Below, piece after piece: positions 70 through 50,089 of a stretch of 64,000 nt of DNA. Within the stretch, counting starts at the first letter, position 1. The number at the start of each line of letters is the position of its first letter. This DNA comes from Pachysolen tannophilus NRRL Y-2460 (taxonomy: Eukaryota): assembly GCA_001661245.1 (NCBI GenBank), contig KV454016.1:730648-794647 (forward strand). The letters are read 5' to 3'. The notes beneath the pieces are model-generated. The model worked only from the letters and a program-made list of their open reading frames with translations. It did no database searches and was not told where the DNA came from. The position numbers and the translations under genes were made by a program.

Positions 70-2178
70 ATGGCAGTATGGGAACAGCTATCTGTCGATA
101 AAGCACATGTAGCTTATGCTATTATTGGATTTTTCGCAACTTTATTTGCAATTGTATCATTATTTTTAAAAGAGAAGTTATTCATTGGTGAACTGACTGT
201 TTCCACTGTTGTAGGCATTATTACAGGTCCCAAAGTATTGAATTGGTTTTCACCTAGTTCATGGACAAGTAATTCTAAATATTTGACTCAAGAGGTTTCG
301 AGGATTATATTAATTATTCAGCTTTTTGCTGTTAGTGTTGAATTACCAAAGAAATATTTAAAGCATCATTTTAGATCTGTTGCTTTATGTTTATTTTTCG
401 CCATGACATTTGGTTGGTTAATTACAGCGTTATTTATCTTTATTATATTCAATAAGAATTTGAATTTTAATGATGCGTTGTTGATAAGTGCTTGTATTAC
501 GGCAACTGATCCTGTATTAGCTGCCGCTATAGTTGGTAAGGGAAAATTTGGTCAAAGAATACCTGCTCATATTAGAAATTTGTTATCTGCCGAAAGTGGT
601 GCTAATGATGGGATGGCATTTCCCTTTGTATTATTATCAACAAACTTGGTTGTAAGATATGGTCATCCAGGAGAAATTATAAAAGATTGGATTTGTGTTA
701 GCATATTGTATGAAGTTGTCTTTGGTATATTATTGGGATGTATTATTGGAATTGTTGGTAGAAAATTAATCAAATTTTGTGAAAAGAAAAATTTAATTGA
801 TAGAGAATCTTTTCTTTGTTTTTATATCTTACTTTCGCTTATGTGTACAGGTTTTGGATCAATTTTAGGAGTTGATGATTTATTGGTTTCTTTTGCTGCT
901 GGAACAGCATTTGCATGGGATGGTTGGTTTCAAAGACAAACTGAAGAAAGTAATTTATCAAATATCATTGATATCTTGTTAAACATGGTTTATTTTCTTT
1001 ATTTTGGTTCAATAGTTCCTTGGGATTATTTCAATGATGCTAGTTTAAATTTGGAGATTTGGAGATTGATATTATTAGGAATTGTAGTTATATTTTTAAG
1101 AAGAATTCCTATTTTTCTTATGTTAAAACCATTTACTCCTGATTTAAGAACATGGAAAGAAGCCTTTTTTTGTGGTCATTTTGGTCCTATTGGAGTAGGT
1201 GCAGTATTTTGTTCAATGGTTGCTACTAGTTCTGTTGAAAAAATATACTTGAAAACCCAAACAATACTTCCGGTAGGTTCAATTGATAATGATGTTTCTT
1301 CTACTATTCCTCATTCTTATTTATTAACAGTTCTTTGGCCAATTGTTTCATTTTTAGTTATGACTTCTATTATTATTCATGGGAGTTCAGTGACAGCTAT
1401 GGTCTTATGCAGTAATGTTAAAAAGATGAATTTTACTATCAGAAACCCTCAAGAAAGTAGTTCTTCTTCAGAAGATGAAGAAGAAAGTGAAAGACAAGTA
1501 TCTGTACCAAATCAAGAAACCCACGGTGAACGTAAAGATCATAATAATAAATTGACCAAAAGGATTAATAATAATACAATGCATTTAACAAGTTTTGCTT
1601 CCAGTTCTAAAAATGACCTGAAACCCAGTGAAGAGATTGAATTAGAAGCTATTCCAATCACTTATGACGAAAATGGGAAAATTAGGAAACCTGAAGTGGT
1701 ATTCATTCAAGGAAACCACTCCATAGTTGAAGACAATAACGGTGAAGTTATAGATGAGTTTATTTATAATCACCACCATAATAACCAACAAGATCAGAGG
1801 AATCATGATTATGATGATGATTCTCCAACTTTTAGGCAAAAGATTTACAAATTTTTCACTAGAACTGATAGCTTTCCTAATTATAATATCAATATTGATG
1901 AAAAAAATAAAAAACAAAACCCTTCATTATCTTTCGATAAACAGACTTTAAACGTATATCAAGTTAACAATGAAATCTATATAGAAAATGACGACGGTAA
2001 GATCATCAGAAAATACATTATTGACGAGCAAGATAAACTGAATCAAGATATAGAAACAGGTCAAAGCAGTTCATTAAGACCAACGAGAAATCTGTTTAAT
2101 AACCATAATAATAGTGAGTTCGATGAACTGGAAATCAGAGAGAAATTAAATAAAGTCATAACTTCAAAATCCAACTAG
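70..2178 (+). CDS. NHA1: Plasma-membrane Na+(K+)/H+ antiporter (CPA1 family)
   Basis: 702 aa. N-terminus MAVWEQLSVDKAHVAY, motifs ATDPVLA, ESGANDGMAFPF, GVDDLL, GHFGPIGVGA, IIHGSSV; hydrophilic C-terminal tail. Confidence 0.93.
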   Translation: MAVWEQLSVDKAHVAYAIIGFFATLFAIVSLFLKEKLFIGELTVSTVVGIITGPKVLNWFSPSSWTSNSKYLTQEVSRIILIIQLFAVSVELPKKYLKHHFRSVALCLFFAMTFGWLITALFIFIIFNKNLNFNDALLISACITATDPVLAAAIVGKGKFGQRIPAHIRNLLSAESGANDGMAFPFVLLSTNLVVRYGHPGEIIKDWICVSILYEVVFGILLGCIIGIVGRKLIKFCEKKNLIDRESFLCFYILLSLMCTGFGSILGVDDLLVSFAAGTAFAWDGWFQRQTEESNLSNIIDILLNMVYFLYFGSIVPWDYFNDASLNLEIWRLILLGIVVIFLRRIPIFLMLKPFTPDLRTWKEAFFCGHFGPIGVGAVFCSMVATSSVEKIYLKTQTILPVGSIDNDVSSTIPHSYLLTVLWPIVSFLVMTSIIIHGSSVTAMVLCSNVKKMNFTIRNPQESSSSSEDEEESERQVSVPNQETHGERKDHNNKLTKRINNNTMHLTSFASSSKNDLKPSEEIELEAIPITYDENGKIRKPEVVFIQGNHSIVEDNNGEVIDEFIYNHHHNNQQDQRNHDYDDDSPTFRQKIYKFFTRTDSFPNYNINIDEKNKKQNPSLSFDKQTLNVYQVNNEIYIENDDGKIIRKYIIDEQDKLNQDIETGQSSSLRPTRNLFNNHNNSEFDELEIREKLNKVITSKSN

Positions 2179-2486
2179 ACGCTCGACCAAGTATCATACT
2201 GTTATATATATTAGTTATAGGCACAGAAGGATCCATATATAGACATCTTTTACATCTTTTACATCTTTTATAATGACAATATAATTCTTTGAAACTGCTT
2301 AAAAAATGCTGAAATTTTTCAATTAAATTTTTTTCTCGTTTAATTTTTCAATTTTTCAATTTTTCAATTTTTCACGATGGTTCAAAGAGAAGAGTCATCA
2401 TCATTACCTTATTTTAATTATAGAATTTGTTTGATTTCGAATATAATACAACGATTAGTTGTAATTGAATAGGAAGAGCAATTAAA

Positions 2487-47670: not shown

Positions 47671-47794
47671 AAGTATTCTTTAAGACAATTTGTTCAATTA
47701 TAAGTGAAAGATTGAGTTTTTTTCTTTTTGTTTTTCTAGTAGGTGAAAGTCTTGGGAAGGTCTCAAGAGTGTGAGTTTTGAGTTTGAGTTTGAT

Positions 47795-50089
47795 ATGAGC
47801 GAATCTGAGAGACCAAAGAAGAAGATGCGTACAGAATCTGCTGTTGAATCGTCTATTCCTGAGCTTGCAGCAAAGAAAGCTGAAGCTAAGTTAAATGCTA
47901 ATCCTGTTTCTATGGAAAAAGAAGTTTTACAAATTCATAATAATGGTGAATTTAAAGGTTTGATTCGTCATTCTACTACTGCGAAGCAAGCAAAGGCTTT
48001 AGAAAATGGGTCAGTGAATCCTTTTACTGGGAAAAATTATTCTGAAAAATATTTTAATATTTTAAAAATTAGAGAAAATCTTCCAGTTCATGCTCAAAGA
48101 CAAGAATTTTTAGAAATTTTCCAAAATACTCAAATTATGGTTTTCGTTGGTGAGACTGGTTCTGGTAAGACTACTCAGATTCCCCAATTTGTATTATATG
48201 ATGATATGCCTCATTTACAAGGTTCTCAAGTTGCATGTACTCAACCAAGAAGAGTTGCAGCAATGAGTGTTGCAGCAAGAGTTGCTGATGAAATGGATGT
48301 AAATTTAGGTGAAGAAGTTGGTTATAGTATTCGTTTTGAAAATAGGACCAGTAACAAGACTATATTGAAATATATGACTGATGGTATGTTATTAAGAGAA
48401 GCAATGGAAGATCATGATTTGAAAAAATATTCTTGTATTATATTAGATGAAGCTCATGAACGTACATTAGCAACAGATATATTGATGGGTTTATTAAAAC
48501 AAGTTACCACAAGAAGAAAAGATTTAAAACTTATAATTATGTCTGCTACTTTGGATGCAGAAAAATTTCAAGATTATTTTAACAGTGCTCCATTATTAGC
48601 AGTTCCTGGTAGAACTTTCCCAGTAGAAATTTATTATACTCCTGAATTTCAAAGAGATTATCTTGATTCTGCTATAAGAACAGTTTTACAAATACATGCC
48701 ACAGAAGAAGAAGGAGATATATTGGTATTTTTAACAGGTGAAGAAGAAATTGAAGATGCTTGTAGGAAAATTTCATTGGAAGGAGATGAATTGATTAGAG
48801 AACAATCATGTGGACCATTACTGGTTTATCCCTTGTATGGTTCATTACCACCAAATCAACAACAGAGAATTTTTGATCCAGCTCCAAAAAATCCAACACC
48901 GAATGGAAGACCTGGAAGAAAAGTAATAGTTTCAACAAATATTGCAGAAACTTCATTAACAATTGATGGTATTGTTTACGTTGTTGATCCAGGTTTTTCA
49001 AAGCAAAAAGTTTATAATCCTAGAATTAGAGTTGAATCCTTATTGGTATCTCCAATTTCAAAAGCTTCAGCTCAACAAAGAGCTGGTAGAGCTGGTCGTA
49101 CAAGACCTGGTAAATGTTTTAGATTATACACAGAAGAAGCTTTTAAGAAAGAATTAATAGAACAAAGTTATCCAGAGATTTTAAGAACTAATTTGGCCTC
49201 TACTGTTTTAGAATTGAAAAAATTAGGTATTGATGATTTAGTTCATTTTGATTTCATGGATCCACCTGCTCCAGAGACAATGATGAGGGCTTTAGAAGAA
49301 TTAAATTATTTAGCTTGTCTTGATGATGATGGAAATTTGACTGCATTAGGTAGATTACTGTCTCAATTCCCATTAGATCCAATGTTAGCAGTTATGTTAA
49401 TAGGATCACCAGAATTTAATTGTTCAAATGAAATTTTAACAATAGTTGCATTATTATCAGTTCCTACTGTTTTTGTCAGACCTGCTTCAGCAAGGAAAAA
49501 AGCTGATGAACTGAAAAATTTGTTTGCTCATCCTGATGGAGATCATTTAACTTTATTAAATGTTTATTTTGCCTTTATGTCCAATGCAGCTTATGAAGTT
49601 GGTTTACATCAATGGTGCCGTGATAATTTCTTAAGTTATAGATCTTTGAAAAGTGCTGAAAATGTTAGAGCCCAATTACAAAGATTAATGGAAAGATATG
49701 ATTTGGATTTAAATTCAACTCCATTTGAAGATAGAAATTATTGGGATAATATTAGAAAAGCACTTTGTGCTGGATTTTTCATGCAAGTTGCTAAAAAGAA
49801 ATCAGGAAATAAAGGTTATATAACTGTTAAAGATAACCAAGAAGTATTAATACATCCTTCCACTGTAATTGGTCAAGATTTTGAATGGCTCATATATAAT
49901 GAATTTGTATTAACATCTAAAAATTATATAAGAACAGTGACAGCAATTAGACCAGAATGGTTAATAGAACTTGCCCCTGTTTATTATGACTTGAGCAATT
50001 TCCCAAAAGGTGATGTTAAGATGAGTTTAGAGTTGGTAAAGTCAAGAGTCGATAAACAAAAAGAAATCAAACAAAAGAGAAACAAATAA
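47795..50089 (+). CDS. PRP43: DEAH-box RNA helicase Prp43
   Basis: [48 protein letters not shown]2 and OB-fold C-terminus. Confidence 0.97.

Follow-up and report, generated by a model that had tools for sequence, protein, structure and literature searches.

Which amino acid does the codon CTG specify in the nuclear DNA of Pachysolen tannophilus NRRL Y-2460? The question was raised by a stretch of 64,000 nt (assembly GCA_001661245.1, contig KV454016.1, positions 730,648 to 794,647 of the forward strand), which is called the window here and is numbered from its first nucleotide. A sequence-only reading of the window had proposed that this genome reads CUG as alanine, and had named CTG codons in several conserved genes as examples. 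Homologue columns at CTG sites, a calibrated category test and the proteins held in public collections all supported this proposal. The window very probably belongs to the nuclear genome of a budding yeast from the CUG-Ala clade (Pachysolen, Nakazawaea, Peterozyma; NCBI table 26), in which CUG is decoded as alanine. Judged from the aligned proteins, alanine is the best-supported reading of the CTG sites of the window: the codons avoid leucine columns, and the conserved columns in which they lie are mostly alanine columns.

The window contains 63 in-frame CTG codons among 13,159 codons, and at least one CTG was present in 20 of the 27 real open reading frames (ORFs; 74%). Of the 29 ORFs listed, two (32133-32597 and 41633-42157) had been set aside as artefacts because both cross masked N stretches. 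Every CTG that the sequence-only reading had named was found in frame, within a long ORF and at the position given for it. The codon usage of the window yielded a CTG/CTA ratio of 1.91, whereas the NNG/NNA ratios of the seven other four-codon boxes ranged from 0.10 to 0.37. With this outlying ratio, CTG is decoupled from the leucine box. The local hydrophobicity near CTG was not discriminating, with a mean of 0.238 compared to 0.31-0.32 for Leu, Ala and Ser.

Residues at the CTG sites

In all searches, CTG was written as X in the query to keep it from influencing the alignment, and homologue residues were examined for 20 of the 63 CTG codons. For Prp43, 116 homologues were used (P0123-P0238), excluding the protein of the window itself and three long proteins from animals (P0120-P0122). 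All 150 listed matches were taken for the NHA1-like protein, of which 124 were aligned at the site and 26 had gaps. The acetyl-CoA-transporter-like protein was compared with all 119 non-self matches, and the PNGase-A-like protein with 96 of its 115 non-self matches, after the 19 weakest, mostly from plants and other non-yeasts, had been dropped. For the LOG-like, deacetylase, PCS60-like and Tim54 proteins, the alignments printed by searches of solved structures were used. The genes and sites are as follows, with residues in one-letter code and X for the CTG position.

47795..50089, forward strand: Prp43 gene, three CTG codons
49358..49360, forward strand: Prp43 residue 522 (GRL-X-SQFPLD); A 111, S 3, T 1, G 1 of 116; A in the Saccharomyces cerevisiae Prp43 structures
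49511..49513, forward strand: Prp43 residue 573 (KKADE-X-KNLF); A 84, I 9, M 6, S 6, C 4, Y 3, L 1, K 1 of 116; A in S. cerevisiae
48821..48823, forward strand: Prp43 residue 343 (GPL-X-VYPLYG), variable; K 62, S 39, A 6, Q 3, D 3, E 2, V 1, L 0 of 116; S in S. cerevisiae
193..195, forward strand: NHA1-like Na+/H+ antiporter residue 42 (FIGE-X-TVS); A 85, S 18, P 10, V 9, T 2, L 0 of 124 aligned
14693..14695, forward strand: LOG-family protein residue 28 (IFQD-X-TSELG); A in four of five printed solved homologues, K in one
18840..18842, reverse strand: polysaccharide/chitin deacetylase residue 202 (GHLL-X-SHTWSH); G in five of five printed alignments, which represent two distinct bacterial enzymes
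43797..45386, forward strand: PCS60-like oxalate-CoA ligase gene, two CTG codons
44880..44882, forward strand: PCS60-like residue 362, variable; N (S. cerevisiae, twice among four printed alignments), S and K in three distinct orthologues
45216, forward strand: second CTG of the PCS60-like gene; K, E, E
39141..40988, reverse strand: acetyl-CoA-transporter-like gene, four CTG codons
39654..39656, reverse strand: acetyl-CoA-transporter-like residue 445; L 78, F 15, I 9, W 7, M 6, C 3, V 1 of 119; A 0, S 0
39635: further CTG of the acetyl-CoA-transporter-like gene; F 38, S 28, A 14 of 119
33506..35998, reverse strand: PNGase-A-like gene, seven CTG codons, all in variable columns
7985 and 7574: Tim54; P and V in a single yeast homologue, in poorly aligned, uninformative loops
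31520..31546, forward strand: MRS3/4-like carrier, run TTG GGT (CTG GGT)x3 CTG GCA, with CTG at 31525, 31531, 31537 and 31543; LGAGAGAGAA under CTG = Ala

The two conserved Prp43 sites (49358 and 49511), the NHA1-like site (193) and the LOG-family site (14693) lie in orthologue columns dominated by alanine. For the deacetylase site, A or G had been given as the usual residue. Glycine was indeed found, but the site is not a specific pointer to alanine; on the printed alignments, it shows a small residue and not leucine. The PCS60-like codon at 44880 had been offered as a further example of alanine; with N, S and K in the orthologues, it says nothing on this point. The run in the MRS3/4-like carrier is a hexanucleotide repeat, and its DNA agrees with the proposed change of LGLGLGLGL to LGAGAGAGA under CTG = Ala. 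It has no homologue column because it is located in an insertion between the carrier repeats. A search of solved structures with the carrier, which has two further CTG codons in its carrier domains, yielded no match at E 1e-22.

The closest Prp43 homologue (P0123, 83% identity) has leucine at the 49511 column, the sole L among the 116 proteins. This could be a CTG = Ala codon common to a relative, if the record was made by standard-code translation. A scan for relatives mistranslated in this way, i.e. with L where at least 80% of the column is Ala, found none in all four families scanned.

Profile and category tests, public proteins and placement

Two tests were applied to the columns. For the first, profiles were built from the homologues alone, the query was aligned, and log emission probabilities were summed per codon, as in Codetta. 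Thirteen match-state CTG sites from four families were used under three sequence-weighting schemes. Alanine ranked first in all three weightings; serine was behind by 3.0, 0.8 and 3.3 nats, and leucine by 6.3, 21.1 and 12.9 nats. As a control, the standard meaning was recovered for 49, 54 and 54 of 59 other codons. Codons with no more than 7 sites made up most of the misses, and the run with default weighting (49 of 59) also called ATG leucine (39 sites).

For the second test, columns were classed by their majority residue (at least 50%), and the classes were calibrated on the true codons of the same genes in the same alignments. The counts were:

CTG, 14 columns: A-dominant 3, S-dominant 0, L-dominant 1, other 3, none 7
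True Ala, 134 columns: A-dominant 80, S-dominant 4, L-dominant 1, other 13, none 36
True Ser, 196 columns: A-dominant 9, S-dominant 72, L-dominant 0, other 15, none 100
True Leu, 268 columns: A-dominant 0, S-dominant 0, L-dominant 169, other 23, none 76

The multinomial likelihood was best for alanine; serine stood at -5.25 nats and leucine at -13.25 nats. The comparison of CTG positions with orthologue alignments and the Codetta-type analysis, both of which had been suggested together with the original proposal, were run within the window.

The public collections were examined by exact look-up. The table-26 (CTG = Ala) translations of the Prp43 and PCS60-like genes were present in NCBI, UniRef and nr, and neither gene had its table-1 or table-12 translation in these collections. 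RPS2, which has no CTG, was found and served as positive control. The public transporter protein P0389 has A at all four CTG positions, including the 39656 site with its leucine-dominated column, and shows no other mismatch. Likewise, the public PNGase-A-like protein P0004 (799 aa, starting later) carries A at each of its seven CTG positions, without any further mismatch. Together, the four public proteins have A at 16 of 16 CTG positions. The public annotation of this same DNA applies table 26 already.

For placement, a maximum-likelihood tree of the acetyl-CoA-transporter family was calculated (37 rows; quick search under LG+G4; Lipomyces and Dipodascopsis as the root). The window fell into a clade with Kuraishia, Komagataella, Ogataea, Candida boidinii and Brettanomyces (Shimodaira-Hasegawa-like approximate likelihood ratio test, SH-aLRT, 99), where it sits at a basal polytomy. 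It was placed outside the CUG-Ser1 clade (SH-aLRT 97) and outside the Wickerhamomyces/Cyberlindnera (Leu1) group (98). The nearest named homologues were from Kuraishia, Komagataella, C. boidinii, C. arabinofermentans and Ogataea; further close transporter homologues grouped with Brettanomyces and not with the window. As a single-gene tree that includes no named Ala-clade sequence, it does not itself show membership in the Ala clade, for which a deep branch within the Pichiaceae in the broad sense, outside Ser1, Ser2 and Leu1, would be expected. In the published phylogeny, Kuraishia, Komagataella, Ogataea and C. boidinii are labelled 'Leu2', and the Ala clade adjoins the Kuraishia/Komagataella/Ogataea clade, with a deep split between them (PMC5951914). 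The placement of the window beside these three genera matches that published position.

Weighing the readings of CTG

Several observations weigh against decoding as alanine. When the profile sums were expressed as log-odds against background, alanine (3.33 nats) and serine (3.31 nats) tied, with leucine at -5.01, and the same background correction would put serine slightly ahead under the --enone weighting, according to our own arithmetic. The profile sums by themselves reject leucine but do not split alanine from serine. In the category test, Val and Cys were just 1.5 nats below Ala. Most CTG columns are variable, and the column at 39656 is dominated by leucine and contains neither A nor S. 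A tRNA(CAG) was not found in the window, the sole tRNA of which is a tRNA-Gly(UCC) (56256-56328). The deacetylase ORF (18390-19445, reverse strand) was not found in the public collections under tables 1, 12 or 26; its public gene model probably differs by another start or an intron. Furthermore, the clade labels of most species in the tree are assumed. The alanine signal at CTG is above chance, yet it is carried by a handful of conserved sites, and the window alone tells alanine from serine only moderately.

Serine is the closest competitor within the profile sums, in which it is second to or tied with alanine, and it would be the meaning of CUG (table 12) in Candida and Debaryomyces (Ser1) or in the Ascoideales (Ser2). 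Several variable CTG columns are also richer in S than in A, e.g. 48821 (39 versus 6). However, no CTG column is dominated by S, compared to 72 of 196 for true Ser codons, and 3 of 14 are dominated by A, compared to 9 of 196; it is these two differences together that set serine back in the category test. The position of the window outside the Ser1 clade, and the presence in public collections of table-26 but not table-12 translations, also speak against serine, which we regard as highly improbable. Under the standard code, CUG would be a rare leucine codon and the sites in alanine columns would be ordinary Ala-to-Leu substitutions. This reading can draw on the 39656 column and on 33892 in the PNGase-A-like gene, an L/A/V column in which L is the most frequent residue (29 of 96). 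It is opposed by the deficit of leucine in both tests, by the frequency of L-dominated columns (169 of 268 for true Leu codons versus 1 of 14 for CTG), by the near absence of L at the three conserved alanine sites (0/116, 1/116 and 0/124 for 49358, 49511 and 193), by the outlying CTG/CTA ratio and by the missing table-1 translations. The standard code can practically be dismissed.

Ambiguous decoding, with CUG mostly read as alanine and a meaningful share of leucine or serine, as in Ascoidea asiatica (PMC6041473), would be compatible with the sequence alone, and one CTG does lie in a leucine column. The frequency of 1 in 14 L-dominated CTG columns is, however, not clearly above that of true Ala codons (1 in 134); by our arithmetic, the probability of at least one in 14 is about 0.10. 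In addition, mass spectrometry of Pachysolen found CUG to be as unambiguous as AUG (PMC4937558), so we give ambiguous decoding very little credence. A related possibility is that some CTG codons are relics, either positions of CUG from the leucine era that survived the reassignment or positions that tolerate an occasional leucine. The candidates are 39656 and 33892. We consider this unlikely, at the level of a long shot, but if such positions turned out to be enriched genome-wide, they would favour a route through an ambiguous intermediate over complete tRNA loss and recapture.

Decoding of CTG as alanine can be accommodated by the mechanism described for the published system. The decoder would be a tRNA-Ala with an anticodon mutated to CAG that retains the alanine identity elements G3:U70 and A73, and it would be charged by an alanyl-tRNA synthetase that is blind to the anticodon. 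CTG-Ala codons should be reachable by a single base change only from codons for Leu, Val, Met, Pro, Gln and Arg. Because their one-step origins would be limited to these codons, they may accumulate at tolerant, variable positions. Conservation is clearly lower at CTG than at GCN positions, and accumulation at tolerant sites would account for the small share of CTG columns dominated by alanine (3 of 14, compared to 80 of 134 GCN columns). It would also explain the occurrence of some CTG codons in L- or V-rich columns.

The code itself is known. Pachysolen tannophilus has been shown to possess a tRNA(CAG) that carries the features of a tRNA-Ala (G3:U70, A73 and a short variable arm), mass spectrometry assigned alanine to 97.2% of the 907 CUG positions with full support, and 16,824 CUG codons affect 80% of the genes (PMC4937558). 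The CUG-Ala code was extended to a clade with Nakazawaea and Peterozyma (PMC5951914). Both reports agree with the statement in the sequence-only reading that the code occurs in Pachysolen and relatives. The window resembles the Pachysolen code (table 26) in that its CTG codons lie in alanine-conserved or variable columns and not in leucine columns, and in that the public proteins equal the table-26 translations. The share of CTG-bearing ORFs is also similar (74% versus 80% of Pachysolen genes; PMC4937558). Among the features compared, i.e. columns, public proteins, placement and CTG share, no difference was found.

The CUG-Ser1 code (table 12, Candida albicans) shares with this system that leucine lost the codon to a tRNA charged by a synthetase that ignores the anticodon, and that CTG is rare and found mainly at variable positions. 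In contrast, the conserved columns of the window are alanine and in no case serine columns, the window lies outside the Ser1 clade, and the table-12 translation is not the public version. The CUG-Ser2 code, with the stochastic Ser-Leu decoding of Ascoidea, is a further independent reassignment of CUG in budding yeasts (PMC6041473, PMC11342251). The window differs from it by the absence of a serine signal, and no Ser2 representative was present among the close homologues.

The CUG-Ala code found here is thus already known and is not a discovery, because the table-26 translations equal public entries and the code has been published (PMC4937558, PMC5951914). It is a reassignment of a sense codon in a nuclear genome, published in 2016 and widened to a clade in 2018. 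If CTG is read as leucine, roughly three in four genes of the window are mistranslated (20 of 27 ORFs, 63 codons), and therefore the annotation of this genome must use table 26. The value of the present check lies in the quality control of the ORF track.

Gene content and other features of the window

The window is AT-rich, with a G+C content of 24 to 33% across 4-kb windows. Its ORFs are tightly packed and intron-poor, and a Pfam scan assigned them to the usual housekeeping families of budding yeasts. Identified were an NHA1-like antiporter, SHMT, Tim54, a MAP-kinase-kinase-like kinase, a LOG-family protein, an SPX transporter, a chitin-deacetylase-like enzyme, an MRS3/4-like carrier, Duo1, a PNGase-A-like protein, Med31, a FIT protein, an acetyl-CoA-transporter-like protein, PDH E1 beta, a PCS60-like ligase, an ABC1 kinase, Prp43, Nab2 and RPS2.

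The CTG codons are unevenly distributed. Several genes that are long or highly conserved have none, namely:

2729-4072: SHMT
15816-18284: SPX transporter
24442-26796: protein with a Zn-phospholipase-C domain
45671-47497: ABC1 kinase
52642-53409: RPS2

Six CTG codons are clustered at 10621-10843 (reverse strand), in the N-terminal region of the kinase ORF at 9212-11227. This cluster lies in a low-complexity sequence that is rich in Ser, Thr and Gln and contains LQT and PSLG peptide repeats.

The masked N runs comprise 342 bases (32166-32507) and 416 bases (41661-42076), and the real flanks of the two artefact ORFs across them consist of low-complexity sequence of the IYIYIY type.

Two reading frames appear incomplete. 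The ORF at 29520-30035 (forward strand, 171 aa) encodes part of a D-2-hydroxyacid dehydrogenase, and its match begins at position 44 of the NAD-binding-domain profile; both the beginning of the gene and the catalytic domain are therefore missing from it. The truncation could be due to an intron, a frameshift or a pseudogene. In the one upstream frame that was tried for the start (28600-29519), 17 stop codons were found. At 55204-55713 (forward strand), a stop-to-stop frame of 169 aa with one CTG matches the C-terminal domain of OM14 (E 1e-16). This frame is absent from the list of ATG-started ORFs of at least 70 aa, and it probably represents a small gene in which the first exon is short or another exon lies upstream.

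Just past the tRNA-Gly(UCC) gene, a region of about 5.7 kb (approximately 56600-62300; G+C 23-32%) contains no family-matched, ATG-started ORF of at least 70 aa. Only repeats of the poly(A)/poly(T) type were found there, without a long inverted repeat or an Rfam match. For a compact yeast genome, so low a gene density is unusual.

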